Below are positions 9,979 to 56,646 of a stretch of DNA of 64,000 nucleotides, piece by piece; within the stretch, counting starts at the first letter, position 1, and the number at the start of each line of letters is the position of its first letter. The notes beneath the pieces were generated by a model. It did not search any database, was not told the origin of the DNA, and saw only the letters and a list, made by a program, of their open reading frames with translations. The DNA is taken from positions 2,144,001 to 2,208,000 of the forward strand of contig OZ242326.1 in the NCBI GenBank assembly GCA_965208325.1. Direction: 5' to 3'. The translations under genes were made by a program, and so were the position numbers. The stretch is from Candidatus Poribacteria bacterium (GTDB lineage: Bacteria; Poribacteria; WGA-4E; PCPOR2b).

Positions 9979-10103
9979 GTAGGGGATCAACCGAGTGAAT
10001 AGCGAGGGCGATAGTGTTTATCAGGTTGCCTCGCCCATTGACCTACAGGACTCCGATATCGTCTTTGACGTGTGAACAAAGGGTTGGGAGACCCAACCCC
10101 TAC
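9979..10103. repeat. GTAGGG...CCCCTAC REP-like element containing a 36-bp insert (9985-10020)
   Basis: Terminal GTAGGG and GGGTTGGGAGACCCAACCCCTAC hairpin; the insert matches 56508-56543. Confidence 0.6.
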
Positions 10104-10152
10104 GAAGGAACGTGTGTCTCTGCACACCTCTCGATTATCTTGTTGCAGTGAA

Positions 10153-10362
10153 ATGTCAACAGTACCCAGTGTAGAAGAACTGCAATCATCCGTTTCCCAA
10201 CTTTCGGCGGAGGAACTTGCTCGCTTCAGGGCATGGTTTGATGAATTCGATGCCGGCGTTTGGGATGGGCAGTTTGACGAAGATGTGGAATCAGGAAAGT
10301 AAGACCGCCTAGCAAAACGTGCAATTGCAGAATTCCGGGCAGCGAAGTGCAAACGAATATGA
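10153..10362 (+). pseudogene. Putative antitoxin with premature TAA (10300-10302)
   Basis: ...WDGQFDEDVESGK*DRLAKRAIAEFRAAK; the family pattern continues past the stop. Confidence 0.65.
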
Positions 10363-10561
10363 ATCACTTCGCGTCACCCTCATCCTGCGAGCGTTATCGA
10401 AAACTCCGGCAAATATTCGAGAGCGAATAGATGACGATTTCAATCTGCTAAAGCGCGATGCGAGACAACCATCCTTACATCTGAAGAGAGCCGGAGGGTG
10501 TTGGTGCGCTAAGGTGAAGAAGGCGCTTGTTGCGATGCTTGAAATAAACCGGGACTTGTGA
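10359..10561 (+). pseudogene. Frameshifted, truncated RelE/ParE-like toxin
   Basis: MNHFASPS... in one frame, DFNLLKRDARQPSLHLKRAG in another; ATGA overlap with the antitoxin. Confidence 0.6.
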
Positions 10562-10714
10562 TAAGATTTCAAGTTAATTGGGAGCCGCTATTTTCGGCGG
10601 ATCTCGCCGCGAAGCGTTGGGTGTCATCTCAAATCACCTTGCGCGGCGTGAAAGGTCACGCCGCGCCGAATGTAACGTGTTACACATATCAATCCGTTGT
10701 CGAAGAGGAGAAGT

Positions 10715-11764
10715 ATGAAACAAATCTGCCGCGTCTTGAGAAATAACCCCTTTTGGGCATTAGGACTACTTTTAATCTGTAGTTGCGACTTTGTTCAAGA
10801 ACTTATCATCTCGGAACCATCAAGCGGAATGGATCCTGGATCGATTCATGTGGCCATGGTGTATCCAAGCGATTGCGTTGGGGATTCATCATATTGTGAT
10901 AGTTTCCATATTGGCGTTAGGACTGCGGAGGCGGAACTTGGAATTAGCCTGACCGAGTTAGACGGCATGGAGAGCGATCCGGCAGCAACAGAGATGGTTT
11001 TGAGAGAAACCGCACAGAATTCAGCCCTCGTTTTAGCGGCAGGTTACCAGATGGGACCACCGCTCGCGCGCGTTGCAGCCGAATTTCCTGATGTCAAATT
11101 TGCGATTTTTGATGTTGTGCTTGACGTTCCGAACGTAGCTTCTATCAACTATAAGGCGAACGAAGGTTCATTTCTGGTTGGTGCGATTGCAGCTTTAAAA
11201 TCAGAGAGCGGAAAAATTGGATATATCGGCGGCGCGGATGTTCCGTTATTACACGAATTTGAAGCCGGTTACGCCGCCGGGGTTCGTGCAATCAATCCGG
11301 ATGCAGCGGTTGCCATTGAATATATCAGCGAGAATGAAGCGGGTTTCGGTCAGCCGGACAGAGCGAAAGAGATAGCGCTGGCACTATATGAGAGCGGCAT
11401 TGATGTTATATACGTCGCTGCGGGCGGATCGGGTCAAGGTGTGCTTGAAGCCGCCCAAGAGCAGGGGAAATTTATCATTTGGGTTGACTCTAACGGCAAT
11501 CATCTCGCGCCCGGAATCGTCTTGACGAGTATGGTCAAAGAGCTTTCGGCGTCTGTCGAGCGAGTCATCGGTGAAACCGCTGACGGCAATTTTATGGCAG
11601 GCGTCCGATACTTCGGACTTGAGGATGGCGGAGTCAGCTATGCCGTTGATGAACATAATCAGTCGTTGCTGTCAGATGAGATTTTACAGACCGTTGAATC
11701 ATTGAAGGCGCAAATCATCGCCGGCGAAATTGATGTTCCGAATGAAGTCTCACTTCCCCGTTGA
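10715..11764 (+). CDS. BMP-family (PnrA/TmpC-like) ABC substrate-binding lipoprotein
   Basis: Lipobox-like LLICSC, EGSFLVGAIAA, GKIGYIGG, WVDSN, TSMVK motifs. Confidence 0.85.
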   Translation: MKQICRVLRNNPFWALGLLLICSCDFVQELIISEPSSGMDPGSIHVAMVYPSDCVGDSSYCDSFHIGVRTAEAELGISLTELDGMESDPAATEMVLRETAQNSALVLAAGYQMGPPLARVAAEFPDVKFAIFDVVLDVPNVASINYKANEGSFLVGAIAALKSESGKIGYIGGADVPLLHEFEAGYAAGVRAINPDAAVAIEYISENEAGFGQPDRAKEIALALYESGIDVIYVAAGGSGQGVLEAAQEQGKFIIWVDSNGNHLAPGIVLTSMVKELSASVERVIGETADGNFMAGVRYFGLEDGGVSYAVDEHNQSLLSDEILQTVESLKAQIIAGEIDVPNEVSLPR

Positions 11765-11824
11765 CGGGACGCGCTGTCGCATCGCTGTAGTAACGGGTTT
11801 GTACGCCGATGGCACAATCAGTAA

Positions 11825-12541
11825 GTGTCATTGAGATTGGTGAGTACCTCCGACACTGAGTTACAGTTCCATCTGATTTTCCGGGATTATAGAAAATCGT
11901 TTAGTTCAATACGGATTGGCGAAATGAACTTCTTCAATCAGGAACGAAAACTCTTTGGCGAACGGCTTGAACCCGATGCCCCGAATCTTAGCGCGCCGGT
12001 TGCGGCCTCGGAGGAACAGCCGGCTGAAGACAATGAATCTCACGCAGCGGACAACGCGAAACAGGGCACGCTCATCTTTACTAATCGAGCGTGTCTTTTT
12101 TCGCAAGTGGAGTTGAATTCCTTTTTCAATCGCATCTCAACCCAGATTCGCGGCGAGAAGAAACGCGGGCGAATACCGACAGCGGATGAAATTCGCGGTC
12201 GCTTTGAGCAGGGGCGTTGTGTCATGGGTGCCGCTGATTGTCAAGTGTGGGGATATACGTGTATCGTACCAATCACGGAAGAGATCGATGTTCTTGAAAC
12301 AACGATACAGCGGGATTTCCAAAATACCCAACCCGCGAAACAGTTAGTCGACCTCGTTTCGCAGGGGTTGCTGCACCCAGAGAAAACCGCCTTCGCGCTC
12401 TCGTGGACATCTTATACCAAACGACTTTACGGTAAATTGGGCTGGTTACCTTGTAATATTAAAATGCTGGATTCCGGCACGAAAGAAGCACTTAAAACAT
12501 ATGATGAAGTCGTCGAACAATACAACATTTTCATACCCTGA
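11825..12541 (+). CDS. Hypothetical protein, possibly a GNAT-like C-terminal fold (start uncertain, alternative ATG 11924)
   Basis: 238-codon ORF; VWGYTCI and KRLYGKLGW are weakly GNAT-like. Confidence 0.4.
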   Translation: MSLRLVSTSDTELQFHLIFRDYRKSFSSIRIGEMNFFNQERKLFGERLEPDAPNLSAPVAASEEQPAEDNESHAADNAKQGTLIFTNRACLFSQVELNSFFNRISTQIRGEKKRGRIPTADEIRGRFEQGRCVMGAADCQVWGYTCIVPITEEIDVLETTIQRDFQNTQPAKQLVDLVSQGLLHPEKTAFALSWTSYTKRLYGKLGWLPCNIKMLDSGTKEALKTYDEVVEQYNIFIP

Positions 12542-12607
12542 TATGTGTAAAAGAGAGCCGTTTTGACGAGGTTTAGCACGGCAGTCTTTATTTCCCATTC
12601 CTAGCAC

Positions 12608-13294
12608 ATGAAATCATCCCCCGGTAACCCGCTGTTTAGTTTGGTCGCGGAAAGTGTAGCCTACCAAGACACTGTTGCGCTAAAGAATATCACGCTGCAA
12701 ATCGACAGAGGCGAAAAGGTCGCGCTAGTAGGTCCGAGCGGCGCCGGCAAAACCACATTACTTCGTACACTCTACGAAAGCGTCGAGGGTCAGCCTTCAT
12801 TCGTTCATCAACACTATTCCCTTGTGCCGCAACTCTCCGCATTTCACAACGTCTATATTGGACGGCTCGATCGATATTCCACAGCATACAACCTCTTGAA
12901 CCTGATAAAACCGCAGAAAAAATCTTTGCAAGAGATTGTACCTATCCTGCGCGAATTGGGCATGGATGAAAAGACTTTTGATAAGGCTGGTGCGTTGTCT
13001 GGCGGACAAAAACAGCGGGTCGCTGTCGCACGCGCGATTTACCGGGGAGAGGAAATCCTGTTGGCGGATGAGCCGGTGTCTTCCGTAGACCCTCATCAGG
13101 CAGGCACGGTGATGGAACTCATTATGCAGAATGCAGAGACCGTTGTTGTGTCGCTTCACGCTGTAGAATTCGCCCTGAAGTTCTCACAGCGAATGGTCGG
13201 GCTTCGCGGCGGCGAGGTTCAATTCGATCTGCCAGCCGAGGCGGTGACCCAGATGATGCTTACGGAACTGTATCGCAATGAGAATGCCCATTGA
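12608..13294 (+). CDS. PhnC-like ABC ATP-binding protein
   Basis: GPSGAGKT, LSGGQKQRV, LLADEP, SLH. Confidence 0.85.
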   Translation: MKSSPGNPLFSLVAESVAYQDTVALKNITLQIDRGEKVALVGPSGAGKTTLLRTLYESVEGQPSFVHQHYSLVPQLSAFHNVYIGRLDRYSTAYNLLNLIKPQKKSLQEIVPILRELGMDEKTFDKAGALSGGQKQRVAVARAIYRGEEILLADEPVSSVDPHQAGTVMELIMQNAETVVVSLHAVEFALKFSQRMVGLRGGEVQFDLPAEAVTQMMLTELYRNENAH

Positions 13295-13326
13295 ATTCAT
13301 GACGTTTCAAAGGGAATACTGCCGCC

Positions 13327-14817
13327 ATGTTGAGAACCAGCCTTGTCTTCTTCGCCATTGCGCTGATTGCTTTACTACTTGCAGACCTTGAAATCTCCAC
13401 ACTTCACCCTTGGACCGAACTGAGCCGACTTGCTTGGGGGGCAATCACGCCGGATATTCCTGCCCTTTGGGGTTTTAAATCCGCAGTTCTCAACACAGTA
13501 ATCTTTGCTGTCTGCGGTACGTTCCTCGGTGTTGTGCTCGGCATCGGATTAGCCTTCGTTTTTCGTTTTATGGCTGTCAGGTTGTTCTGCGCATTCATCC
13601 GCGCCATTCACGAGATTTTCTGGGCATTTATCTTCCTGCCTATCGTTGGCTTAAATTCAACCTGCGGCGTGCTCGCCATTGCGATTCCTTATGCAGGCAT
13701 CTTTGCCAAGGTATATGCGGAGATTATTCAGGAATCGGATCGGGGCCCGCTTGAGGGAGTGCCTAAAGGGACTGGGGGTTTGAGCCGTTTTGTTTACGGT
13801 ATTCTCCCGGTCATTTATGCCGATACCAAACACTACACCAGCTACCGTTTCGAGTGCGCCCTGCGTTCTAGCGCTATTCTCGGATTCATCGGACTGCCGA
13901 CGCTCGGATTCCATCTTGAGACAGCGTTTCGAGAAGGTTTGTATTCGGAGGCGTGGGCGCTGCTCTACGCCTTCTACATCTTGATTGCCTCGCTCAGGTA
14001 CTGGCTCAAACCGCGACTTGCCGCACTTTACATTGCAGCGTCGTTCGTGTTGTTGTCAAAGACAATCAACGTGTCATGGGAGAACATCGTCCGCTTTTTC
14101 ACCTACGACATCCTGCCGTGGCCAATGCGCCGGGAAGGTATTCACGACGGATCGCACGACGTTTCGTTTGTGTGGGAATCAATTCCTGGCTGGGCGCACA
14201 AAATTTTCGTTCAGGAGGCTTGGGAAGGTATAGGGAACACCGTAGTTTTGACCCAAATTGTGTTGGTTGGGACTGGCTTATTTGCGCTATTGAGTTTTCC
14301 ATTCGCATGCCGGCACTTCTCGGGGAAAATCTTCAATCGGATCTCGCACTTCGGGCTGATTGTCATCCGCACGACTCCGGAGTACATGCTCGCGTATATC
14401 CTTGTACAGCTCTGGGGACCGTCAATGCTTCCGGCTGTTTGGGCGATTCTTCTGCACAACGGAGCAATTCTTGCGTTCCTGACTAGTAACAACGCCGATT
14501 TGGTCTCTCCCAGAATAGATACGCCCCAGAGACGGATAGACCGGTATTTGTTCGAATTCTTGCCGCGCGTATACGGCCAGTTCCTCGCGTTCCTGTTTTA
14601 CCGATGGGAGGTGATGATGCGGGAGTCCGCCATTCTTGGGATTCTCGGCATATACACGCTGGGATTCTACATTGAGAGCGCAATTTCCGATGATCAGATT
14701 GATAAAGTAGTTCTGCTGATTCTCATCACGGCGCTGCTCAACATGGGCATTGATTCCGTGTCGCAGTTTGTACGCCGGCGCCTTAAGATTTCTACGAAAC
14801 TGGTCACGTCTTCGTGA
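13327..14817 (+). CDS. Duplicated PhnE-like ABC permease
   Basis: Two copies of the YRFECALRSSAILG / YRWEVMMRESAILG motif; many TMs. Confidence 0.85.
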   Translation: MLRTSLVFFAIALIALLLADLEISTLHPWTELSRLAWGAITPDIPALWGFKSAVLNTVIFAVCGTFLGVVLGIGLAFVFRFMAVRLFCAFIRAIHEIFWAFIFLPIVGLNSTCGVLAIAIPYAGIFAKVYAEIIQESDRGPLEGVPKGTGGLSRFVYGILPVIYADTKHYTSYRFECALRSSAILGFIGLPTLGFHLETAFREGLYSEAWALLYAFYILIASLRYWLKPRLAALYIAASFVLLSKTINVSWENIVRFFTYDILPWPMRREGIHDGSHDVSFVWESIPGWAHKIFVQEAWEGIGNTVVLTQIVLVGTGLFALLSFPFACRHFSGKIFNRISHFGLIVIRTTPEYMLAYILVQLWGPSMLPAVWAILLHNGAILAFLTSNNADLVSPRIDTPQRRIDRYLFEFLPRVYGQFLAFLFYRWEVMMRESAILGILGIYTLGFYIESAISDDQIDKVVLLILITALLNMGIDSVSQFVRRRLKISTKLVTSS

Positions 14818-14996
14818 GAGGACTACCTACTGCTTGTCAATAACAACGAATCATTTCGCATTAATTTTCGTTACCGTGTGCGAAGGTGACGATTTCCCTG
14901 TTACGGCGTTTCAGATATTCTTCGCGGTATTTCACAATAATAATGTACATCGCATAACCACTTAACTGGCTTACAATGAAAGGAGAATCGACTTAA

Positions 14997-15689: not shown

Positions 15690-15898
15690 CCGCCTGTTTA
15701 AGAAGGCTCATCATTGGATTAACGCAACGGGGCACAAAAATTATGCGCGGTATGGACCGGTTGCGTTTACGTTCCTGCACCGCGCCAAACGCGTGGAGTC
15801 TGTCATTTCATGGATTTACCGCAACCTCCGATTTGAAAATGTGCTTCCCAAATGCAGCGCTTGACGGCTGAAAAACACGCTAAATAGATTACTATCAT

Positions 15899-15938
15899 TG
15901 AGCCATGAGTTATCACAAAGGATTCATGGCTCATTTTT
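15899..15938 (+). terminator. Probable intrinsic terminator
   Basis: TGAGCCATGA/TCATGGCTCA stem followed by TTTTT. Confidence 0.5.
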
Positions 15939-16007
15939 ATATTTTGACTACATTTTATGATATTTTAAATGAATGTGGCGAATATATATGAATATTTGCA
16001 TTATGCC

Positions 16008-16036
16008 TTGACATACATTTATAACTATGTTATATT
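16008..16036 (+). promoter_or_regulatory. Strong sigma70-type promoter
   Basis: TTGACA-17 bp-TATATT with extended TG and AT-rich upstream region. Confidence 0.65.
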
Positions 16037-16471: not shown

Positions 16472-16485
16472 GGGAGGGACGTTGA

Positions 16486-17183: not shown

Positions 17184-17197
17184 TCTTACCCATGGGT

Positions 17198-33663: not shown

Positions 33664-34464
33664 ATGGACCAAGCCCAACGAATCGCCGAATATAAAGAGT
33701 ACAGTCCTCGAGCCAGTCGATTGTCAGAGGAGAAATTTCTGCTCTTTCTGGAAGATATAACCGCAGTCTTTGACGGTTTCAAAGCGTTAGATATACAAGC
33801 GTTGGGAATTGAACATAACGAACTCCGCGTTATCATCGGTCCCAACGGCGCGGGCAAAACAACGCTTTGCGATGTCGTAAGCGGAAAAACCCGGCCGACG
33901 ACTGGATATGTCTTTTTCGATGGCACCGATATTACACAACAGACAGAAGAACAGATTGCGTTGCGGGGAATCGGCAGGAAGTTTCAAACGCCGACCGTTT
34001 TTGATAGCCTCACGACCTACGAAAATATGGAACTCGCCCTACCGGGCCACTACCATCTGTGGCCCAATCTGTTTGGACACACAACAAAAGCCCAGCGGGA
34101 ACACATCTTAGAAATTTTAGAGCGAGTCGGACTCGTAGATGCGTTAGACCTTGAAGCCAAGTATTTGAGTCACGGACAACGTCAATGGTTGGCGATTAGC
34201 ACGCTTATCCTATCCAACCCCAAATTGCTCCTCGTCGATGAACCTGCAGCCGGTTTAACAGATGCCGAAACGGCGTTGACAGCGGAACTCCTCCTTGAGT
34301 TGAAAGGCGACCATACGCTTATCGTCATTGAGCACGATATGGATTTTGTACGCCAGCTCGATTCATTCGTAACCGTGCTGAATGAAGGGGTCATTATGGC
34401 GGAAGGATCCATGCAGGAGGTTCAGCAAAACGAGGAGGTCATTGAGGCATATCTCGGCAGATAA
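33664..34464 (+). CDS. urtD: Urea ABC transporter ATP-binding protein
   Basis: FDGFKAL, GPNGAGKT, GRKFQ, LSHGQRQW, EAYLGR. Confidence 0.93.
   Translation: MDQAQRIAEYKEYSPRASRLSEEKFLLFLEDITAVFDGFKALDIQALGIEHNELRVIIGPNGAGKTTLCDVVSGKTRPTTGYVFFDGTDITQQTEEQIALRGIGRKFQTPTVFDSLTTYENMELALPGHYHLWPNLFGHTTKAQREHILEILERVGLVDALDLEAKYLSHGQRQWLAISTLILSNPKLLLVDEPAAGLTDAETALTAELLLELKGDHTLIVIEHDMDFVRQLDSFVTVLNEGVIMAEGSMQEVQQNEEVIEAYLGR
34417..34463 (+). repeat. 47-bp direct repeat, copy 1 (3' end of urtD)
   Basis: GAGGTTCAGCAAAACGAGGAGGTCATTGAGGCATATCTCGGCAGATA; 45/47 identical to 36562-36608. Confidence 0.9.
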
Positions 34465-34823: not shown

Positions 34824-36563
34824 ATGCTAACAAAATTGATTTGCCGAAATTTCAAGAATTTTGATGATGTAGAAGTCGAATTGGGGAACCCTGTGGTTTT
34901 TATTGGCCCGAATAACTCTGGCAAAACTACAGCATTACAGGCGCTTGCGCTGTGGGATGTTGGTCTCAAACGTTGGAACGAAAACCGTAAGGGGAAGCCA
35001 AATCCGGAAAAACGTCCTGGCGTTGCTATCAATCGACGCGATCTCATCTCAGTACCTGTCCCGAATGCGAGGTTGCTTTGGCAAAATTTGCAAGTTCGAG
35101 ATACTCATAAAATTGATGGAAGTCAACGGACGCAAAACGTCCGTATGGATATAATTGTTGAAGGTGTTACCGCAAATAGGCAGTGGGCGTGCGGCTTGGA
35201 ATTCGATTATGCCAATCAGGAATCCTTTTACTGCAGACCCCTACGATTATCAGAAATCGATGGCAAGGTGTTGAAACGAATGCCGGTTCCTGAAGAGGCA
35301 GCGCACCTTGATGTCGCATTCTTGCCGCCGATGTCTGGACTCGCGTCGAATGAAACGCGACTCGATCCGGGCGCGATTAATGTCCGTGTTGGCGAAGGAC
35401 GTACCGCAGAAGTCCTCCGCAATCTCTGTTTTCAAGTTTTGCACGAGCATCGGGATGAAGAAACTTGGGGAAAAATTTGCCAACAAATTCGAGAGCTGTT
35501 CGGTGTTCAACTTGATGAGCCTGTCTACATTCAGGAGCGGGGAGAGATAGAGATGAATTACCGGGACAGTTCAGGTGTCACTCTGGCACTGTCGTCTTCC
35601 GGGCTAGGGTTTCAGCAAACACTACTTTTGCTCGCGTATATTGCGGCACGACCGGGCTCTGTCCTTCTCCTTGACGAACCAGATGCTCACCTTGAGATTC
35701 TCCGACAGCGGCAGATTTACCAGGTGCTTAGTAAGCTGGCGAAAGCACAGGACAGTCAAATCATCGCTGCCAGTCATTCGGAGGTCATACTCAACGAAGC
35801 CGCCGTACGGGATGTAGTTATCGCTTTTCTTGGCGTTCCGCACAGAGTTGATGACCGTGTCAGCCAGCTCTTGAAATCCCTCCGGTCGATCGGCTTTGAG
35901 CAATATTATCAGGCGGAACAGAGGGGTTGGGTACTCTACCTTGAGGGTTCGACCGACCTAGCAATTTTACAGGCGTTTGCCGAGAAACTAGATCATCCCG
36001 CGCAGGATGTATTGGAGCGTCCATTTGTGCAATACATCGGAGACCAACCACAGAAAGCACGCGACCACTTTTATGGATTGCGAGAGGCAAAACCGAATTT
36101 GGTTGGATTCTGTCTAATCGATCGGATGGATTACGGACTACAAGACAGACCTGAATTACGAGAATATATGTGGACACGGCGTGAAATAGAAAACTACCTT
36201 TGTCGGAAAGATGTTTTGCTCCGATGGGCAGAGGTTGAAGAAGCGCAACGGTCTATGGGACCGCTGTTTAGTAATCAATGGTCACCCGCAATGGAAGAGA
36301 CAATCGCAGAGGTTGAAAATGCTTTACAGACTCTTGGCAAAGGATTGCCTTGGTCAGCAGATACCAAAGTAAGTGATGATTTTCTGAATCCTCTTTTTGA
36401 AGCGTTTTTCAAGAAATTGGGTTTGGAAAATCTCATGCTAAAGACGAATTATCATACGCTCGTTCAATACGTTTCATCGGATGGGATAGACCCAGAAATT
36501 CGGGACGTGCTTGATGGTATCCAAGAGATAGCGAACCAAGCAGTTCCAATTGCCGAAAGGTGA
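34824..36563 (+). CDS. ABC-type ATPase + TOPRIM-like domain (OLD-family-like ATP-dependent nuclease, candidate defence gene)
   Basis: RNFKNF, GPNNSGKT, LLLDEPDAHL, ASHS; C-terminal YLEGSTD and REIENYL. Confidence 0.8.
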   Translation: MLTKLICRNFKNFDDVEVELGNPVVFIGPNNSGKTTALQALALWDVGLKRWNENRKGKPNPEKRPGVAINRRDLISVPVPNARLLWQNLQVRDTHKIDGSQRTQNVRMDIIVEGVTANRQWACGLEFDYANQESFYCRPLRLSEIDGKVLKRMPVPEEAAHLDVAFLPPMSGLASNETRLDPGAINVRVGEGRTAEVLRNLCFQVLHEHRDEETWGKICQQIRELFGVQLDEPVYIQERGEIEMNYRDSSGVTLALSSSGLGFQQTLLLLAYIAARPGSVLLLDEPDAHLEILRQRQIYQVLSKLAKAQDSQIIAASHSEVILNEAAVRDVVIAFLGVPHRVDDRVSQLLKSLRSIGFEQYYQAEQRGWVLYLEGSTDLAILQAFAEKLDHPAQDVLERPFVQYIGDQPQKARDHFYGLREAKPNLVGFCLIDRMDYGLQDRPELREYMWTRREIENYLCRKDVLLRWAEVEEAQRSMGPLFSNQWSPAMEETIAEVENALQTLGKGLPWSADTKVSDDFLNPLFEAFFKKLGLENLMLKTNYHTLVQYVSSDGIDPEIRDVLDGIQEIANQAVPIAER

Positions 36564-36608
36564 GGTTCGGCAAAACGAGGAGGTCATTGAGGCATATCTG
36601 GGCAGATA
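36562..36608 (+). repeat. 47-bp direct repeat, copy 2 (vestigial urtD 3' end)
   Basis: GAGGTTCGGCAAAACGAGGAGGTCATTGAGGCATATCTGGGCAGATA. Confidence 0.9.
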
Positions 36609-36658
36609 TTTTTGGGAAGGCGGGCTTCAGAAATAGAGAATCCCGTTTGGATGTGCGT

Positions 36659-36798
36659 TTACGCATTACTCGTTACGCATTACGTATTACGCATTACGTA
36701 TTACGCATTACGCATTACTCGTTACGAATTACGCATTACGCATTACGCATTACTCGTTACGTATTACGCATTACGCATTACTCGTTACGCATTACGTA
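36659..36798 (+). repeat. Tandem heptamer array, 20 units
   Basis: TTACGCA / TTACTCG / TTACGTA / TTACGAA units with strict 7-bp period, ending 11 bp before the urtE ATG. Confidence 0.95.
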
Positions 36799-36809
36799 TC
36801 ACCAACATC

Positions 36810-37505
36810 ATGCTAACAGTCTCAAATCTCTCATTTTCATACGGCGAAGTCCAAGTGCTGCGTGGGGTGGATATTCACGTGCCTGCGGAGACAATTGTCT
36901 CGATGATGGGACGCAACGGTGTGGGAAAAACGACACTGATGAACAATATCGTCGGGCTGCTCAAACCGTCGTCCGGCTCGATAAAAATCGAAGACCGTGA
37001 ACTTGTGCGCGTTTCGACGCACCGGCGGATACGCGCCGGGTTGGCGTACGTACCGCAGGGACGGATGATATTTCCGAAACTGACGGTTGAGGAAAATTTG
37101 CGGGTCGGGCTATCGGCGCGTGCTGATAAACGCGCACAAATCCCGGATGAGATTTATGAACTCTTCCCAATTCTCAAAGAGATGGGAGGTCGGATGGGCG
37201 GCGACCTCTCCGGGGGGCAGCAACAGCAACTCGCTATAGGACGCGCGCTCGTCACTGATCCGAAGGTTCTTATCTTGGACGAACCCACCGAGGGCATCCA
37301 ACCGAACATCATCCAACAGATTGGGGTGGTGCTGCGGCAATTGGTGCAAAACAGACGGCTTACAATTCTTATCGTCGAACAGTACCTCGATTTTGTTCGG
37401 GAATTCTGCCAGCAGTTTTTCATCATGAACCGCGGTGAGATTGTCGCACACGGTGAAACTGACGCGCTCAACCAGAACATGATTCGGGAGTACCTTAGCG
37501 TCTAA
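36810..37505 (+). CDS. urtE: Urea ABC transporter ATP-binding protein
   Basis: GRNGVGKT, YVPQGR, LSGGQQQQLAI, DEPTEGIQP; the family N-terminus MLTVSNL begins at 36810. Confidence 0.93.
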   Translation: MLTVSNLSFSYGEVQVLRGVDIHVPAETIVSMMGRNGVGKTTLMNNIVGLLKPSSGSIKIEDRELVRVSTHRRIRAGLAYVPQGRMIFPKLTVEENLRVGLSARADKRAQIPDEIYELFPILKEMGGRMGGDLSGGQQQQLAIGRALVTDPKVLILDEPTEGIQPNIIQQIGVVLRQLVQNRRLTILIVEQYLDFVREFCQQFFIMNRGEIVAHGETDALNQNMIREYLSV

Positions 37506-39028: not shown

Positions 39029-40747
39029 ATGGCTCTCAACATCCCACGGCGTACCTACACGGACATCTACGGACCGACCGTCGGCGATAAAGTTCGCCTT
39101 GCGGACACCGAACTATTTATCGAAGTCGAGAGTGATTTTACAACTTACGGCGATGAGTCGAAATTTGGAGGCGGCAAGACGCTGCGCGACGGCATGGGAC
39201 AGATGCCCGGTGCTACGAGTGCGGATGGTGTGCTCGATCTTGTTCTGACCAATGCGCTAATCCTAGACCATTGGGGAATTGTCAAAGCAGACATCGGCGT
39301 GCGAAACGGAAAAATCGTCGGGATTGGCAAGGCGGGGAATCCAAACATTATGGACGGCGTCACCGAAGGTATGATCGTCGGGGCAGGCACGGAAGCCATT
39401 GCTGCCGAGGGGATGATTGTGACGCCGGGCGGACTTGATGTCCACATCCACTTCATCTGTCCCCAGCAAATTGATGAAGCCCTCTCTTCGGGAATCACGA
39501 CGATGATTGGCGGCGGGACTGGACCCGCAACCGGCACCAACGCCACCACCTGCACCCCGGGCGCGTGGAACATCGCGCGAATGCTGGAAGCTGCAGACGG
39601 GTTCCCCATCAACCTCGGTTTTCTGGGCAAGGGCAACTCATCGCTGCCGGCGTCACTCAACGAACAGATTGAGGCGGGCGCGTTGGGACTGAAACTCCAC
39701 GAGGATTGGGGTACGACCCCCGCTGCAATCGACTGCTGCCTATCCGTCGCCGAAGAATACGATGTGCAGGTCGCCATACATACCGATACACTCAACGAGG
39801 CGGGGTTTGTCGAAGATTCCATCGCCGCATTCAAGGGACGAACCATCCACACCTACCACACTGAAGGCGCGGGGGGCGGCCATGCGCCGGATATCATCAA
39901 GGTCTGCGGTCAAAGCAACGTGTTGCCATCCTCGACCAATCCTACGCGGCCGTTCACAGTCAACACCATTGATGAGCACCTCGACATGCTAATGGTCTGC
40001 CACCATCTTGACTCCTCTATCCCCGAAGACCTGGCATTCGCCGAGTCTCGGATCCGCCCGGAGACTATCGCCGCCGAGGATATCCTGCACGACCTCGGTG
40101 CATTCAGTATGATGGCGTCCGATTCACAGGCGATGGGGCGTGTCGGCGAAGTCATTCTCCGCACATGGCAGACTGCCCACAAAATGAAAGTCCAACGTGG
40201 GCGCCTTCCTGATGAAACGGGCGAAAACGACAACGTTCGCGCGAAACGCTATATCTCCAAATACGCAATTAACCCGGCAATCACACACGGCGTCAGCGAT
40301 CACGTGGGATCGATTGAAGTGGGGAAGCTCGCAGATCTTGTGATATGGGATCCAGCCTTTTTTGGCGTCAAACCGCAACTGGTGCTGAAGGGCGGATTCC
40401 TCGTCTGGGCGGCGATGGGCGACGCAAACGCTTCCATTCCAACGCCTCAGCCGGTTCTAGGGCGTCCGATGTTTGGCGCATTTGGGCGCGTCCCGTATAC
40501 CGCCTCGTATACGTTTGTTTCGCAGGCTGCTGTTGCGAGAGAGGTCGGTGTGCCTCTCAATCTTCAAAAGCCGACGGTTGCCGTGCGAAACTGCCGCACC
40601 CTAGACAAATCGTCCATGATAAACAATGCCTACCTGCCGAAGATGGAAGTAAATCCAGAAACCTACGAAGTCCGCGCAGATGGCGAACTCCTCACCTGCG
40701 AACCCGCCGAAATCCTTCCCATGGCGCAGCGTTACTTCCTGTTTTGA
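39029..40747 (+). CDS. ureC: Urease alpha subunit
   Basis: [37 protein letters not shown]. Confidence 0.99.
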
Positions 40748-44517: not shown

Positions 44518-44563
44518 AACACGCAATCTTCACTCGCGCTGCTGAAATCTGTGACCCCTTACC

Positions 44564-48944: not shown

Positions 48945-49085
48945 CCGAAAATCCATTCACTGTTTTCAGTGGTTTTCCCAACCACCACCCGAATTCTGCG
49001 GCTGTCGCATCGCGTCCGATTTGCTTGACGAAGTCCCATTTGTGCGACAAAAATTGTCCGCGGCGCAGACTGGAAGCGGACTTGA

Positions 49086-49150
49086 ATTTTGACCAAGTCG
49101 TGTAAAAGGTCTGAATCAGGATACTCAGGATTAGGGGATTTTCAGGATGA
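49086..49150 (+). repeat. 9-bp-period repeat element end (TCTGAATCAGGAT...)
   Basis: Near-identical copies at about 49604-49670 and 53375-53440, inverted copy at 49820-49863. Confidence 0.75.
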
Positions 49151-49158
49151 CAAGACTT

Positions 49159-49504
49159 GTAGGTTGGGTAGAGCGGATTCATCCAAAATTCGCCCATTAA
49201 AACCAACCACCCAGTCAACCGCACCGCGTACAAAACTCAATCGATGGAGCGAAACCCAACGTTTTTGAAACGTCTCGATTGCCGAACGGCAGACGCCAAC
49301 GCCAGAACAGCTGGAATAATGAAAAACAATGAGAGTATGCGGAATTCGGAGCGGTGTTTTGGATTCGGGAGTTGATAGGGTTGCCGGAGGTTATAAAAAG
49401 CGTTGGGTTTCGCTCCGCGTGTGTTGACAACAGCATCATTAAAAACTCGGAACGGTAAATTTCTACCAGAACCGTTTTGGGATTATTCGCTCTACCCAAC
49501 CTAC
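49159..49504. mobile_element. Non-autonomous REP/MITE-like element with GTAGGTTGGGTAGAGCG terminal inverted repeats
   Basis: TIRs plus internal GCGAAACCCAAC / GTTGGGTTTCGC; the body aligns with 56266-56646. Confidence 0.75.
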
Positions 49505-49603
49505 AAAAACTGATTAATTGCGGTGCGACCCGTTTGGAATACAGACGCATATTCAACGACAATACGATTCCCATCAGTACAAAATTAGACGGGAAGCACG
49601 TAT

Positions 49604-49863
49604 AATTTCGGACGAAGTCGTGTAAATTGTCTGAATCAGGATACTCAGGATTAAAGGATTTTCAAGATTGAATCTATGTGTTTCGGTTCATTGTCCAGAC
49701 GACTCCTTTATTTTGAGCAATCTAGTTCAGAAAAGTCACAGAATCGCCTCCCATTTTTTTCGAATCTTCATTAACGGGATTAGAGGATTTACAGAATTGA
49801 TTTTATCCGTCACAAATTGTTATCCTGAAAATCCTCTAATCCTGAGTATCCTGATTCAGACAA
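49604..49863. repeat. Element bounded by inverted 9-bp-period arrays
   Basis: TTGTCTGAATCAGGATACTCAGGATT ... AATCCTGAGTATCCTGATTCAGACAA. Confidence 0.75.
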
Positions 49864-49875
49864 ATTTCAGTTTCC

Positions 49876-50111: not shown

Positions 50112-52883
50112 ATGGCGCTCAGCGAGATTGAATTAATTCAACGCACACTGGATGGCGACGAGTCCGCGTTCGGTTTTTTAGTCGATAAATACAAAGCAGC
50201 CGTCCACGCGCTGGCTTACCGCAAACTTGGGGATTTCCATCATGCTGAGGAGATTACCCAAGATACCTTCCTCAAAGCGTATCAAAAACTATCGACACTC
50301 CGCGACCCGCGTCGGTTTTCCGGCTGGCTCTACGTGATTGCCGCCCGGCTCTGTTTGTCATGGCAACGAAAAGAAAGACCCTATACACACGCTATCGACA
50401 ACCGTGAGACAGCAGAGATGAATTCAATGGCTGTGGCGAAATACACCGACCAAAGAATTCGTGAAGATGTACGCGATACGCTTGAAAACCTGCCCGAAAG
50501 CGAGCGAACAGTGTTGGCGCTCCACTATTTTGCGGGCATGACCTGCGAAGAAATCGGGCGTTTCATGGGGACATCGCAAAGCGCCATTCTTAATCGGCTT
50601 TATCGCGCCCGACGTCATTTAAAAGAGGAGATGATACAAATGATACGGCAGACGTCTGGAGCTTTTCATCTGCCACACACTGTGACGCAAAAAATCATAG
50701 GCAAAATCCGCAAACTTCAACCGACGCCGTCGCCGCAGAGTAAACCTATTGTTCCATGGATTGCCGTCGCGGCGCTCAGCTTAATTGCCCTGTTCGTCGG
50801 GCTCGCACCACGACAGATGACGCATTTTCAGCGTCCATATAGCCTTAACGCGCCAGAATCAGCGACGCTGGTTGAAGTGATCGATGCGCCGATAATTGAC
50901 CTGCCCGTGACCAAACCGGCACTTGTGAATCGACTGGGTACACCGAATGCGGAAAACTCCCGCGACGGCAACGGCGCATCCGATAACGTTTTGGCGGCTG
51001 TAAAGGATTCCCAGGATGGCGAATGGATGCGGCTCGGCTGGACGCAAACCAATGGTCCATACGGGGGTGAGATTCGCGCATTCCATGCCACGCCGGAAGG
51101 CGTAATCTTCACCGGAACGTCGGGGGCAGGTATTTTCCGCTCAACCGATGGCGGCGATACTTGGTCGCCGGTCAATACCGGGTTGTCATACCACAGGGGA
51201 GAGGGTTTTATGCCTGTCAATGCATTTGTGCAAAAAGGATACTCGCTCTACGCATGCGCGAGTGACGGTCTATACGTCTCAACCAACGGCGGTGATTCAT
51301 GGCGCCGAATGACACATGATCGGCGGGTTTCTAATGCCGCTGGCGTGCTCATTATCAACAATCGCCTCTACATTAGCACATTTGGTGAGGGTGTGTGGTA
51401 CACGGATGATAATGGGAATTCGTGGATACCGATTAACGATGGATTGGAAAACCTGGAAATTCGTGAACTTGCCGCGATGGGGACCACCCTATTCGCTGGC
51501 ACGGAGAACGGGGCTTTCCGCAGACGAGCAAGCGAAAACTCGTGGACACCAATCAACGCAGGCTTTACGGTGCAACCGATGAATATTGATGCCATCAACA
51601 AAATCAACAAAGCGATGATTGAGTCGGGAGCGGATCCGTTGCCTATGAGCCAGTTCGCTTCGGGATTGCGGGTAGATTCGTTGGCTGTCATGGGGGATGC
51701 ACTCTACATGGGGATATTTATGGGCAAAGACAAAGGGCTGTTTCGTTCCGATGACGAGGGAGACTCCTGGACACGAATCACCGCAGAGTCGATGGTACAT
51801 ACCGTCGAAGCGTTGGCGTCGTCGGCAACGATGTTGTATTCGAGTACCTTTGGTAGCGGTGTTTTCCGTTCAAGCGATGGCGGCAATTCTTGGACAGAAG
51901 TCAACGACGGCTTAACAAACCAAACGGTCTCTGCGTTGTTAGCCGTGAGTGAGAAAACTGTTTTCGTCGGAACGGATAGTGGCGTTTTCCGCTCTACGGA
52001 TAGCGGAGATTCTTGGATAGAAGCCAACGCCGGCTTGACGAATACGTGGGTAGACAATCTCGCAGTCATTGGAGAGTCCATTTACGCCGGGTTCGGTGAT
52101 CGACTTGGTCATTCAGTTGTCGGCGGAAAGTTATGGACGCCCGTGAAGAATGGCGCGACACCGGCACAATACCATTTTTCCGCACTATCGGTTTAGGGCC
52201 GAATACTTTATGCCGCTGCGACTCGCTTCGCCGTTACCGTCGAAGGTGGCATTATTCAGTTGGATGTAGAGCGAAACTCGTTGATAGAACTCTACGTGGA
52301 CAGAAGATTGTCTACAATCGAGTCCTTGGAAATTGTCGGTACGAAATTCTATGTCGGAACCCAGGGTGATGGTGTTTTTCGTTGGGTGAAAGACTTGGAT
52401 TCATGGACAAATCTCGGATTGGAGGGACATGCCATCGCGGCGTTGTCGGTGAATGGAAAAACCATCTACGTTGGAACTGGGCAGGGAGAGATTTTTCGCT
52501 TGAAAGACACGGAAGAATCGTGGGAATTAATCAATGAAGACATGAGGAGTGATGGTAGTATAACAGAGCTAAAGTGGATTGGAACGACACTCTACGCCTC
52601 CACTTGGGATGTGGGCGTCTTCCGTTCCATTGACGACGGCGATTCGTGGATACCAGTTAATGATGGGTTAGTTGACACACCGGTTATGACATTATGTACT
52701 GACGGATCAACAATTTTCGCAGGAACATATTACAACGGTGTTTTTCGGCTAACGCCTGAAAAAAATCTGTGGGAGCCGGTCGGTTCGCTCGCCCACCGGG
52801 TTGATTCGTTGGCGGTCGTTGATGGAGTGCTTTACGCAGGCACAACGGGAAGAGGCGTGTTCCGCACCCCGCTTGAGAAGTAG
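50112..52883 (+). pseudogene. ECF sigma-70 factor + TM + extracytoplasmic BNR/beta-propeller repeats, interrupted by in-frame TAG (52194-52196)
   Basis: sigma2 (AEEITQDTF, FSGWLY) and sigma4 regions, TM helix, repeated FRSxDGGxSW; ORFs 50112 and 52260 share a frame with only one stop between them. Confidence 0.8.
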
Positions 52884-52888
52884 CTTTT

Positions 52889-53121
52889 GTTGGTTGGGTT
52901 AAGCGTTCAACTGAACGAATAGATTAAGCGACCGAATAGGGAGTGCGATAGAACTCTTAGGCGATAGTCTTCCCCGCACACCACCACCGATAAATTGAAC
53001 ACATCACAATTAACGAAAAACGTTGGGTTACGCTGCATCCGTCAAATCTAGGAAGCGGCTAACCTGCCGAGCGTTTCGTTACAATTGACATCATTTCCGT
53101 AATCCGCTTAACCCAACCTAC
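52889..53121. mobile_element. REP/MITE-like element (GGTTGGGTTAAGCG TIRs) carrying nested 36-bp inserts
   Basis: GTTGGTTGGGTTAAGCG ... CGCTTAACCCAACCTAC. Confidence 0.7.
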
Positions 53122-53374
53122 AAAATCTTCGCAAGAATTCACCCCTGCAAATGCTCTCAATTATGTTCAATCGCGCACCAGATCTGTAGCCATTTTTGCA
53201 GCCCCTCCCATTGTATTCGTCCCAAGCAAAAAATCACCCACCATTTCAGGGCAAATACCCCTTGAAATATGTTAAAATATTATTCACAGATATCTTGGCG
53301 AAACGACTAAATCGCAGAGGCTTTCAAGCGAACACAGTCCTAGCCGAAATTTAATGGTAGTGAAATGTTGCGGT

Positions 53375-53505
53375 AATTTTTAGAGGTGGCGGTGTAAATT
53401 GTCTGAATCAGGATGCTCAGGATAGAGGGATTTTCAAGATAATAAATGCAAACGCATAGAATCAATCCAGTAAACCCTAAAATCCCGTAAATCCCGATTC
53501 TGGCA
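53375..53505. repeat. Short element with inverted 9-bp-period arrays
   Basis: TTGTCTGAATCAGGATGCTCAGGAT ... AATCCCGTAAATCCCGATTCTGGCAA. Confidence 0.65.
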
Positions 53506-53998
53506 AAAAGTGTAACATTTTGTGAGATCCGGTTGACGGTTGGGAAACTCACAGGCAAAACCACATTTTGACAACTTTCGAATGACGTGAGCACAATATG
53601 AACAACGGAGAAAACTTAAAATCATCTCCATTTGCACGTCCCATATTGAAATTCACCAAAGAACACGAATGGACGCCTAAACTCTACGTAACAGGAGCAA
53701 GACAAGAAATCGCTGCCGTTCAAGTCAACCTACATTAATTCGGGCCGGGAAACGAAAAAAAGGGGGCGACGGGAATTACTTTCAGCGCCACCGAAAAGTT
53801 TCAGTTCGTAACGTTTTGTTTAGGAATGGCGTGATTAGGTGAGTCACAAAAAATTGTCGAATCGCAACATCACCACATATGGGTGCATTTTAACATGTCG
53901 TCGCACTACCGTCAAGGCAAAACGGTGGATCAATTTTTGTCTTCCGCTGAAATTTTGGCTCTAATTTGAACATTGAAAACGCTAAAATGGAGAGATAT

Positions 53999-56131
53999 AT
54001 GGACCAACTTGACCAATCCCAAAGATCGTTCTGCGAAGCCCCTTCAACAAACATCAGGTTACTTGCACCGGCCGGATGCGGGAAGACGCATAGCTTGCTA
54101 TTTCGTTGTCAACACCTCGTCGAACATGCCAAATCAAGAAGTGTGCGCTTCCTCCTTGTAACATTTACTCGTGCCGCTATGCAAGAATTAAGTAATCGTC
54201 TTGATGAAGACAATCGGTTCGCGCAATTTCAAGATTCCATTGAAATCACGACGCTGAACGCTTGGGGATATCGCCGAATTAGGAATGCCGTTCGCTACCC
54301 CAAGCTCCTCAATCCAGAAAGAGACTATCATTTCGCAACGCAAAATCAACTTCGACCGGTCTGGCAAAATCATGACCCTATAAGAAATGCGATTCAGAGC
54401 AGGAACCGACGGACTAGAGTTATCGCTCCACGAAAGTTGATGGACGTGATTGATGGATTTAAGTCCTTAGGATTTGACCACGTCAGACATGCTAATTTTA
54501 GCACATTTTCACAGCATTGGCGCCAACTTGAACTCCATGGATTAGAATGGAGAATAAAAGAGCTGCTTGGTGAAATAATCGATCTTGATATACTTGATAT
54601 TGAAATTGAAATGCGAAACGGTGAGTCTAGCACAGATGCTTTGAGAAGTGAAATCGAATCACTGAAACGTGAAGTCTACGATGTGTTTTACAAATTTTGG
54701 CTAGAAGCGGTGGAAAATTTGCTTGATAGCGCCACGTTTACCCTTGAAGACCAAAAATACTACGCTTACTTGAACGAGCGCGATAACATAGAGCAGGGAC
54801 GCTACCTTTCCGGCGCAGCAGGTTATGACCATGTTTTCGTCGATGAATTCCAAGATATCAACCCGCTTGATCTAGCGCTAGTAAAAGCAATCGTTGAACG
54901 TCGCCGTGCCACATTGACTATCGCAGGAGACGACGACCAAGCAATTTTTGAATGGCGAGGAGCAACGCCATACTACATCCTAGATCCCGACAGATTTTTT
55001 GGCTCTCCGTTTCACACATATACACTTGGCGTAAATTATCGTTCTCCTAAGAACATTGTTGAACATTCCCAACAACTGATTTCTCACAACTTGCGGCGAG
55101 AGCACAAACAAGTTAACGCAGCAAGTTCTCGAAATGCACAGATTGAGATTAGGGAAACTAGTGGCCTCATAGAAGCGCTTGAGTACGTTGATGCGATAGT
55201 TAATGAGGAAATTCAACAAGGTAGAAGCCCCAGTCGCGTAGCAATTTTTGGGCGCAAACGAAGCCAAATCATCCCGTATCAAATGCACTTTGCATCACAG
55301 AAAATGCCCTTTTGCGCCGCTGAAGATTTGCAAATCTTCTTGAGCGATGCGTTTGATAGCCTTCTTCAACTTTTGGATATTAAACCTCGCTCCGAAGTGG
55401 CACAGAGATCCGGGCAGGTTATAGATGACCTGTTGTTTTTGTGCGACCGCGTGAAACGATACCATATCAGTAACGCAGAAAAACAAGCTTTGAAAAGTCA
55501 TCTTCAACAATCTCGACCATCCTCCATCATTGCTGCAACAAATTGTTTGGCTGAATACAGGGGGCGATTGAAAGGGGAAAATCGCGAAGGTCGCATGAGC
55601 ATCACTATGGCAAATTGTGTACGGGAGTTTATTGGAGCAAACACCGTATCAGATGCATTGATTGAACTAAGCGTCAACTTTGAGGGACTACAACGTGATT
55701 TTGGTAAGGCTGAAGATGATATTTTTTACGCAGACCCTCCTTTCTTTCAGCTAGCCGAATATGCGTCAAGCTATGCGGATGATTATGATTCCTTTATCAG
55801 CGACATCGAGGAGGCCAGGGCGACGCTTGTTTACATGCCTCCATTTGAAGATGACAACGTAGAAAATCTTTGGCTACACCCCATACACTTGATGACGGCA
55901 TTGCGCGCTAAGGGCAAAGAGTTTAACACAGTTATATTACTTGATGTGAACGATGGGATATGGCCAAATCGAAATGCAGAGACTCCTGCGAAACAAGAGG
56001 CTGAACGACGTGTCTTTTATGTGGCATTCACACGGGCTAGAAAACGTGTTGTAATGTTGGTGAATTCGCGCATGGGGAATCGAGAAGCTGCGCCATCACC
56101 CTATATTGAAGAACTTGGTTTTGAGCGATGA
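53999..56131 (+). CDS. UvrD/Rep-family SF1A helicase
   Basis: APAGCGKT, VTFT, VDEFQD, GDDDQAIFEWRGA, NYRS, AKGKEF, EAERRVFYVAFTRAR. Confidence 0.9.
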   Translation: MDQLDQSQRSFCEAPSTNIRLLAPAGCGKTHSLLFRCQHLVEHAKSRSVRFLLVTFTRAAMQELSNRLDEDNRFAQFQDSIEITTLNAWGYRRIRNAVRYPKLLNPERDYHFATQNQLRPVWQNHDPIRNAIQSRNRRTRVIAPRKLMDVIDGFKSLGFDHVRHANFSTFSQHWRQLELHGLEWRIKELLGEIIDLDILDIEIEMRNGESSTDALRSEIESLKREVYDVFYKFWLEAVENLLDSATFTLEDQKYYAYLNERDNIEQGRYLSGAAGYDHVFVDEFQDINPLDLALVKAIVERRRATLTIAGDDDQAIFEWRGATPYYILDPDRFFGSPFHTYTLGVNYRSPKNIVEHSQQLISHNLRREHKQVNAASSRNAQIEIRETSGLIEALEYVDAIVNEEIQQGRSPSRVAIFGRKRSQIIPYQMHFASQKMPFCAAEDLQIFLSDAFDSLLQLLDIKPRSEVAQRSGQVIDDLLFLCDRVKRYHISNAEKQALKSHLQQSRPSSIIAATNCLAEYRGRLKGENREGRMSITMANCVREFIGANTVSDALIELSVNFEGLQRDFGKAEDDIFYADPPFFQLAEYASSYADDYDSFISDIEEARATLVYMPPFEDDNVENLWLHPIHLMTALRAKGKEFNTVILLDVNDGIWPNRNAETPAKQEAERRVFYVAFTRARKRVVMLVNSRMGNREAAPSPYIEELGFER

Positions 56132-56265
56132 TTTTGGCACCACCCGCCCAATCACCGCCGTTTCGAGAAGGCCTACCTTCTCGCCAAGGAGTTGCAGACT
56201 TTGGGAACCGTTTCTCAACAGATGGGGTTAATTTTACTGTTGAAAATCGCATTGCGAAAGTTTTT

Positions 56266-56646
56266 GTAGGTTGGGTAGAGCGGATATGGCGAAAAATGCG
56301 TAGTATTTCGTACGCGGTACATACGTTAAAATTGCTTAGTAAATGTAACGGTGGAGCGAAACCCAACGTTTTTGAAACGTTTCGATAGCCGAACGGCAGG
56401 CGCTACCGCCAGAACGACTGGAATAATGAAAAACAATGTGAGTGTTTGGAATTCGCAGCGGTGTGATGAATTCGGGATTTATAAGGGTTGACGGAAGTTT
56501 TTAATACGGAAGACTATCGCCTTCGCTATTAGTTCAGTTGATCGTTGTATTTCGCTGTGCGTGTATTGACAGCAGCACCATTAGAAAATCGGAACGGTTA
56601 ATTGCTACCTGAACCGTTTTGGAATTACCCGCTCTACCCAACCCAC
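56266..56646. mobile_element. Second copy of the GTAGGTTGGGTAGAGCG MITE, with a 36-bp insert at 56508-56543
   Basis: Colinear with 49159-49504 from GGAGCGAAACCCAAC to the right TIR, apart from the insert. Confidence 0.75.

Follow-up and report, generated by a model that had tools for sequence, protein, structure and literature searches.

Several copies of a sequence of about 36 nt lie inside longer repeats in a 64,000-nt stretch of Candidatus Poribacteria DNA (GenBank assembly GCA_965208325.1, contig OZ242326.1, positions 2,144,001 to 2,208,000 of the forward strand; hereafter the window), and one of them interrupts another. This raises the question of whether so short a unit is an insertion element in its own right and what could move it. 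A sequence-only reading had described a mini-element found only inside repetitive extragenic palindromic (REP) repeats and miniature inverted-repeat transposable elements (MITEs), fixed in length, frame-preserving, and inserted in trans at structured repeats by an enzyme not encoded in the window. Our analysis supports its central claim, a discrete mini-element inserted into structured repeats and into itself. The feature is real and abundant. It is a dispersed hairpin repeat of very small size whose structure and insertion evidence are unusually clear, and no earlier description of such repeats in Poribacteria was found in the literature searched (REP, MITE, REP-associated tyrosine transposases (RAYTs), nested insertions). 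The unit probably belongs to a family of very small (approximately 35–37 nt) non-autonomous insertion elements that are moved as a folded single strand by an enzyme encoded elsewhere.

The window holds three intact copies and one copy split by another. The sequences and coordinates of the sequence-only reading were confirmed, and its identity of 28/36 was reproduced; ungapped identities among the three intact 36-mers are 28/36, 25/36 and 24/36. After these, the split outer copy at 52905 comes closest among ungapped matches in the window (23/36), and all others reach 22/36 or less. A 19-base core pattern, taken from the window copies themselves, matched exactly three times in the window against 0.01 expected, and three matches were reached in none of 100 shuffles. 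As these copies supplied the pattern, independent support has to come from the scan beyond the window. With a covariance model trained on 150 copies, the window's own three among them, the intact copies scored as listed here, and the next match in the window reached 11.6 bits:

9985..10022, plus strand: c1, an intact copy beginning at the G of GATCAA, with an unusual 3′ tail, TGTTTATC; 57.1 bits.
9991..10007, plus strand: covarying hairpin of c1 (element positions 7–23), with CC/GG, tandem G.A, GU/GC and the loop GAAUA.
9978..10104, plus strand: REP-like host hairpin split by c1, read directly from the sequence.
52905..52922, plus strand: 5′ part of the split outer copy, GTTCAACTGAACGAATAG; across the junction the outer copy is 23/36 identical to a full copy.
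52922..52957, plus strand: c3, the inner nested copy; core match, 48.2 bits.
52959..52973, plus strand: 3′ part of the split outer copy, AGGCGATAGTCTTCC, resuming at host position 22.
56508..56543, minus strand: c2, a somewhat decayed copy; core match, 47.0 bits.
56259..56653, no strand assigned: filled host repeat of c2, resembling a MITE or a REPIN (a REP doublet forming a hairpin), with inverted GTAGGTTGGGTAGAGCGG ends, found by repeat comparison.
49157..49511, no strand assigned: sister repeat without the element (empty), its flanks 84% and 83% identical to the filled copy.
49399..49401, minus strand: empty site; length difference 35.

At the first site, the left arm of the host hairpin, CGTAGGGG (9978–9985), pairs with CCCCTACG (10097–10104) around c1, in agreement with the proposal that this copy splits the left arm of a REP, and an inner stem GGGTTGGG/CCCAACCC lies at 10081–10099. 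The host hairpin also contains about 59 nt of another repeat, and its right part is a repeat family present at other loci. A counterpart of c1 with the same tail occurs in a related genome (L110; L numbers denote stretches from the core scan), with flanks 89% identical. At the second site, the two halves of the outer copy enclose c3 as had been read. The G at 52922 is common to the inner copy and to the 5′ part of the outer copy, of which it is the last base, and host positions 19–21 are missing; 2–3 host bases are likewise lost in other nested copies. At the third site, c2 shows decay as an A.C mismatch at pair 11:19 and a T for G at position 13, with one non-standard pair in the covariance-model alignment. 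The repeats at 49242–49522 and 56349–56664 are collinear, with no target duplication; on the minus strand the empty site reads AACG-C-TTTTT, and at the filled site AACG is followed by ATCAAC... in place of the C. The clean extra block reported here therefore stands, with its empty site and its lack of duplication; as the offset between the repeats steps from 7107 to 7142, its length is 35 nt, not 36.

We scanned one genome per bacterial and archaeal species with the core pattern, and at least 131 stretches were among the matches listed; the copy counts below rest on those stretches and the window. All 131 are from Candidatus Poribacteria, representing at least 13 assemblies, and among the matches listed the family has so far been seen only there. 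The window's own genome is not among these assemblies, the best similarity to it being 78–89%. De-duplication by context left 178 distinct strict copies, the window's three included, and a profile hidden Markov model found 594 distinct matches at E<=1 in these sequences, of which many are fragments or decayed copies. Plasmids gave chance-level matches only (E = 6) and phages none. The further copies and filled/empty pairs on which the sequence-only reading had staked its proposal are thus plentiful.

Numbering from the G of GATCAA as position 1, many positions inside the unit carry 2 bits of information across the 178 copies, against no more than 0.43 bits from −3 to 0 and no more than 0.28 bits at the listed positions beyond +37 (to +66). 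Since information is close to zero outside −3 to +37, the unit is discrete and not part of the REP consensus. When positions 1–4 of the pattern were left free, 339 copies were recovered, with G1 in 305, A2 in 327, T3 in 337 and C4 in 328. The consensus is G-ATCAA-NN-GA-NY-GAAUA-GN-GA-NN-GCGAUAG, followed by a short tail ending in (A/T)TCC(Y). These 3′ tails vary in length (AGATCC, TAGATCC, TAAATCC, TCTTATCC and others, all ending in TCC and a pyrimidine), which makes the unit about 35–37 nt with no fixed 36. With filled and empty sites differing in length mostly by 32–38 nt and tandem units of 35 or 38 nt, the description as fixed-length does not hold.

The unit contains a strongly covarying hairpin. 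Mutual information is 1.14 bits for pair 11:19 (G-C 95 times, A-T 38, C-G 33), 0.96 bits for pair 8:22 (C-G 85, T-A 66, G-C 13) and 0.86 bits for pair 7:23 (C-G 56, A-T 46, G-C 37, G-T 31), and position 12 is C or T opposite an invariant G18. In the 150-copy alignment, these four inner pairs (7:23, 8:22, 11:19, 12:18) are formed in 95.8% of 600 cells, with 218 cells changed on both sides; none of 500 shuffles equalled these values, and slid controls reached at most 57.5%. Between the two short stems, G9-A10 faces G20-A21 as a tandem G.A (G9.A21, A10.G20). RNAalifold independently returned the same pairs and added A2-U28, U3-A27 and C4-G26, which are invariant and which covariation therefore cannot test; U4, present in six copies, keeps a wobble with G26. 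Positions 2–28 can thus form one irregular hairpin with three outer pairs, a 2x2 loop, the inner stems around the tandem G.A and a GAAUA loop, and the hairpin of c1 was recovered by an RNA minimum-energy fold.

The fold is also strand-specific. G.U cells are frequent (29 G.U at pair 7:23, 58 U.G at pair 12:18). Mismatches of the kind on which a fold of the opposite strand would depend are rare, only 25 of the 600 cells being unpaired, so the fold belongs to the GATCAA strand and not to its complement. The 3′ hairpin around GATA that had been proposed instead (positions 20–25 with 30–35) is not borne out, as it is paired in 65.1% of cases against a shuffle mean of 63.4%, and the covarying pairs 7–8/22–23 remove positions 22–23 from that stem. 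A terminal GGATC/GATCC stem was likewise paired at the shuffle mean (69.7%). A MITE of the DDE type was rejected on the behaviour of these ends and on the lack of target duplication in the pairs inspected. The structural case rests on covariation, not on thermodynamics, and the covariation, set against weak folding energies, implies a bound protein.

We then compared the flanks of each copy with all fetched DNA, and 48 of 175 copies had at least one relative in which both flanks are adjacent, i.e. an empty relative. The 221 filled/empty pairings differ in length by 32 nt (54 pairings), 34 (55), 35 (33), 36 (45), 37 (11) or 38 nt (5), and the remaining 18 by 17–57 nt. None of the filled/empty pairs inspected shows a target duplication. 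In the cleanest cases, a simple insertion of 35–36 nt starts with TCAA, as in the following (^ marks the junction):

L077 against L024: GGA^GTG, 36 nt.
L080 against L075: GCGA^GTGCGATAG, a nested case, 36 nt.
L002 against L078: GTAGGA^GCGATC, 35 nt.

The inspected empty sites have a G immediately before the insert, followed by A in the cleanest cases and by C or T in others. A strict filter left 12 filled/empty pairs, in which gap placement is ambiguous at 30–36 nt and no single cut position or rule emerges. Empty relatives exist for at least 10 unrelated host contexts, among them the hairpins CACTCC-AGC-GGAGTG, GATCC-AGA-GGATC and GCCCC-AGA-GGGGC, several GTAG-headed REP hairpins (GTAGGAGCGATCTCC..., GGTAGGTGCGGTTTCC..., GTAGGCGGGGCATCTTGCCCC...), the window's AACCCAACG repeat and the element itself.

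One copy lies in a protein gene. At L012:3568-3604, on the minus strand, it sits in frame within an open reading frame (ORF; L012:1808-4111) of 768 residues with PSCyt1 and leucine-rich-repeat domains, whose family numbers 2029 proteins at E<=1e-5. We aligned 14 homologues chosen among the best 120 of these 2029. Four of the 14, 87–100% identical to the query, read NAG-SSDR(I/T)GSAIGVSR-TPELL where the remaining ten have NAG-E-(T/P)...; with 13 residues in place of one, the four have gained a net 12 residues (36 nt), exactly at the element in L012. In the DNA, GCTGGA is followed by TCAAGC...GTTTCTAG and then by GACT, so that the GGA^ target is seen again; the fetched loci contained no DNA of an empty homologue. 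That sub-lineage inherits the insertion and tolerates it. The preserved frame holds for this survivor, presumably through selection, but does not characterise the element as such. Almost all copies lie between genes, and the unit cannot be called frame-preserving as had been suggested. Among 250 profile matches of at least 25 bits, 196 are intergenic, 40 fall in crude ORF calls and 14 lie at locus edges; ORFs make up about 79% of this DNA when called in that crude way. Of the copies in such calls, 25 were listed, and 20 of these are in ORFs shorter than 600 nt, which are likely spurious.

Insertion appears to fall directly after G or GA and takes a single orientation relative to the target; it favours three positions within the element as well as the arms of GTAG-type REP hairpins. 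Part of another copy is found in a flank of 93 of the 178 copies, and on both sides of 45, compared with 325 of 5000 random positions in the same loci. In one classification, host copies are cut after G18 (19 copies), A21 (3) or G24 (24), and nesting after GAATAG, the position used in the window, accounts for 19 of the 178. Another 29/178 copies have a GTAG within 10 nt upstream, and 22/178 are in CCNGNGG hairpins. No scored repeat context fits 34/178, and with these and the copy in the conserved gene the claim that the unit occurs only inside REP/MITE repeats had to be given up. Of neighbouring pairs no more than 300 nt apart, 63 are direct and 8 inverted; this nearly constant orientation indicates that integration is strand-specific relative to the target.

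Targeting of both REP arms and the element itself leads to nested and tandem arrays. Head-to-tail arrays are found with exact 35-nt units (junction ...TCCC^TCAA...) and with 38-nt units, which is the outcome that would be expected from insertion at the GA^TCAA boundary of a resident copy. The array at L034:3963-4180 has 5.7 units of 38 nt, and the one at L054:241-1368 has 35-nt units within higher-order repeats of 217 and 255 nt. One subfamily, marked by its CT/AG stem and TCTT tail, occupies the same site (AACCCAAC^) in members of a single MITE family in L007, L008, L076 and L113, and again as the window copy at 56508; this recurrence in several genomes shows that at least some copies spread as MITE passengers. 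Near L076:10001-10030, a stretch of about 480 nt holds a GTAGGTTGGGT-family MITE with the element in both arms, in opposite orientation and with one copy decayed, which fits an element duplicated together with its arm. The GTAG-headed REP-type hairpins in this DNA form many different families (GTAGGTTGGGT..., GTAGGCGGGGC..., GTAGGGTGGGCA..., GGTAGGTGCGGTT..., GTAGGAGCGATCTCC...), with examples at L078:10641-10690, L018:1890-1900 and window 49157–49188. This diversity suggests an active REP/RAYT-type system, which for this phylum is undescribed in the literature searched.

What moves the unit is most likely a trans-acting, structure-specific single-strand nuclease or transposase. Four features point to a single-strand agent: the fold is strand-specific, the unpaired bases are fixed while the stems vary, integration is coupled to orientation and leaves no duplication, and the targets are hairpin arms in a genome full of GTAG-type REPs. 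A protein encoded in trans would recognise the folded single strand by its shape and its fixed unpaired bases, and would then cut and join it; the hairpin would be kept because only copies that bear it are copied again, and not through any need of the host. The best-known type of enzyme with these properties is an HUH/RAYT-like single-strand transposase, which we put forward tentatively.

Several observations weigh against movement as a folded single strand by such an enzyme. Many junctions are untidy, with 1–3 target bases (C, T, CG, GTT) gone from the filled site, or with an A where the empty site has C or T, which simple cut-and-paste does not predict. The empty relatives are mostly paralogues with 75–100% flank identity and are not proven pre-insertion alleles. 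Folding energies are weak (RNA −5.7 to −8.8 kcal/mol, z-scores 0 to −1.7; with DNA parameters included, z-scores +1.3 to −1.8), and the hairpin was recovered in 5/8 copies with RNA parameters and in only 1/8 with DNA parameters. Copies are diverse and few are identical, the commonest 41-mer occurring four times among 178, so that no recent burst is visible. Taking local GC skew as a proxy for the replication strand, we counted 96 copies with the top strand on the G-rich and 96 with it on the C-rich strand, with 58 weak-skew copies left out, and the bias typical of IS200/IS605 was not seen. Finally, no HUH/Y1, RAYT, IS110, reverse transcriptase or cas family was found in a Pfam scan of the 50 window ORFs or among the 52 multi-copy ORF families of the loci.

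The enzyme search covered approximately 1.3–1.6 Mb around the copies, not whole genomes. The scan of the window ORFs agrees with the proposal that the mobilising enzyme is not encoded there; the suggested check for copies next to HUH/RAYT, IS110, reverse transcriptase or cas genes turned up none among the families scanned. The only transposases in the locus families are DDE types of IS4/5 and IS1595, with three copies each, not adjoining copies of the element. Nor did nesting-aware pairing of orphan 5′ and 3′ halves (259 pairs) reveal a longer parent element bounded by two halves: 192 of the pairs are intact units, 24 contain one nested copy, and the few that lie 250–4000 nt apart are mis-pairings of separate elements.

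It is conceivable, though doubtful, that the unit represents a distinct class of mobile DNA. Such an element would be a 35–36-nt unit comprising little more than one protein-recognised irregular hairpin (tandem G.A, fixed bulges), homing strand-specifically into G/GA sites of other hairpins and of its own, maybe via a tiny circular single-strand intermediate, by an enzyme or mode outside those described for REPs, small dispersed repeats (SDRs) and IS200/IS605. The exact 35-nt head-to-tail arrays would then be the trace of the circular intermediate.

The main enzyme-free rival is template switching or microhomology-mediated repair at stalled hairpins, in which the unit would be copied from a hairpin that already holds it. 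It would explain the untidy junctions, with their 0–3 lost target bases and a single base of microhomology, G at the left and frequently G or A at the right, and it is compatible with the lack of target duplication and with hairpin arms as targets. However, repair copying should bring along variable donor flank, and the unit has a sharp 5′ boundary (T3 in 337 and C4 in 328 of the 339 copies) and a constant 3′ end, ...TCC. The covariation implies selection for a specific fold, and the tandem arrays consist of exact 35-nt units. We consider this route unlikely.

An alternative that we judge improbable is a structured RNA motif under host selection, for example a hairpin that binds protein or stabilises transcripts, which would owe its dispersal to its usefulness and not to mobility. 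Strong covariation together with fixed unpaired bases would suit such a motif, as would the strand specificity that its G.U pairs confer and the better recovery of the hairpin with RNA than with DNA parameters. Against this, orientation is unbiased with respect to flanking genes. Of the copies between co-directional genes, 61 share the strand of the genes and 66 do not, and 35 copies lie in divergent and 34 in convergent gaps, which speaks against an RNA that acts in cis. Half of the copies break into or adjoin others, which would disrupt a functional RNA, and filled and empty relatives occur in many unrelated hosts, including a coding gene. No Rfam family matched at the three window sites, either at the gathering score or at E<=5. 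A 'Poribacteria-1' RNA motif finds no support in the main text of PMC5737381.

Two further explanations fare worse. That the unit is a plain part of a REP or MITE consensus, travelling only as a passenger, is very improbable and largely refuted here: the CT/AG-stem subfamily does recur at the same AACCCAAC^ place of one MITE family in several genomes, but flanks overall carry no information, at least 10 unrelated host contexts have empty relatives, and one copy lies in a protein gene. That it is the repeat of an RNA-based array system, such as a CRISPR (clustered regularly interspaced short palindromic repeats) repeat or a 36-nt type III antitoxin repeat, is almost certainly wrong, since in spite of a length of about 36 nt and a few head-to-tail arrays (L034, period 38, 5.7 copies; L054, period 35) these arrays of 35 or 38 nt are spacer-free, regular unique spacers are absent, spacing is irregular, most copies are solitary or nested, and no cas or toxin gene was present among the neighbours scanned (50 window ORFs, 52 families).

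Among described systems, the cyanobacterial SDRs appear to be the closest, followed by REP/REPIN. SDR4, SDR5 and SDR6 of Nostoc and relatives, reportedly the subject of Elhai et al. in 2008, are said to be 21–27 nt long, cyanobacterial, nested and without target duplication, with mostly identical copies. They share with the Poribacteria unit a very small size, a mainly intergenic location inside other repeats and nesting in each other, as well as short inverted ends around a non-palindromic core, the lack of target duplication and the lack of a known mobilising enzyme. The Poribacteria unit differs in its length of 35–37 nt, its taxon (so far Poribacteria only, among the matches listed), its covarying internal hairpin with tandem G.A, its approximately 20 fixed bases and its diverse copies. 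The unit thus seems to behave like an SDR while residing inside REP/REPIN-type repeats.

IS200/IS605 elements and palindrome-associated transposable elements (PATEs) insert strand-specifically 3′ of a short target, without duplication, and carry imperfect hairpins at their left and right ends. The Poribacteria unit appears to insert in a similar manner, with G or GA as its short target, and likewise depends on an imperfect hairpin; its TCCC^TCAA head-to-tail junctions are those that insertion at the element's own left boundary would produce. It differs from IS200/IS605 in having one hairpin, no leading/lagging bias (96 against 96), imprecise junctions and no tnpA in the sampled DNA.

REP and REPIN sequences resemble the unit as short intergenic hairpin repeats presumably acted on as single strands by a trans-encoded enzyme (PMC3116915, in excerpt), and the unit's hosts are themselves GTAG-headed REP hairpins. 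The unit, however, has no GTAG head, forms no inverted doublets (63 direct neighbours against 8 inverted), inserts into REPs and into itself, and has no RAYT gene in the sampled DNA around its copies; for want of the head and the doublets we rejected membership of the REP/REPIN group. The attC sites of integrons would, like the unit, be folded single-strand DNA sites with conserved irregularities and covarying stems (PMC5737381, in excerpt), and single-stranded DNA motifs and RNA motifs are described there as indistinguishable by bioinformatics alone. In contrast to attC, the unit shows no cassette organisation, no integrase nearby and no R′/R″ cores, and it is much shorter and dispersed.

Few insertion elements seen so far are as small as this unit, of which sponge-associated Poribacteria carry hundreds of copies. 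If confirmed, it would set a lower size limit for structured mobile DNA, and if it does form a distinct class, it would be the smallest mobile element with a defined recognition structure. Its clear covariation, hundreds of filled and empty sites and self-nesting make it a good system for studying how SDRs and many REPs move, and the combination of fixed bases with stems constrained in shape only offers a ready substrate for an enzyme search. In annotation and assembly, the units crowd the spaces between Poribacteria genes, give rise to spurious small ORFs and can lengthen real proteins by 12 in-frame residues. They serve, too, as a marker of this lineage of uncultured bacteria associated with sponges.

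The gene content of the window is that of an ordinary chromosome, with urease and urea-transporter genes, polA and a uvrD-like helicase among others; a tRNA scan found none. The only Rfam match of the window at the gathering score is 5_ureB_sRNA (87.7 bits, 39182–39479, minus strand), antisense within the urease alpha-subunit gene, which may be due to conservation of the coding sequence and not to an sRNA of this organism. Another repeat family, unrelated to the element and with the core GTCTGAATCAGGATACTCAGGATTAGGGGATTTTCAGGAT, occurs at 49067–49148, 49587–49668, 49762–49869 and 53359–53500, with direct and inverted copies around the same intergenic regions and an inverted pair of 48 nt with 92% complementarity. 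A direct repeat of 47 nt, 96% identical (34417–34463 and 36562–36608), copies the end of a urea/branched-chain-type ABC ATPase gene. Between its two copies lie approximately 2.1 kb with an AAA_15/AAA_21 (OLD/AbiEii-like) ATPase gene (34824–36560), and this region looks like a gene inserted into the urea-transporter operon. The second copy is followed by a tandem array of about 30 TTACGCA heptamers (36631–36840), at the start of the next ABC ATPase ORF.

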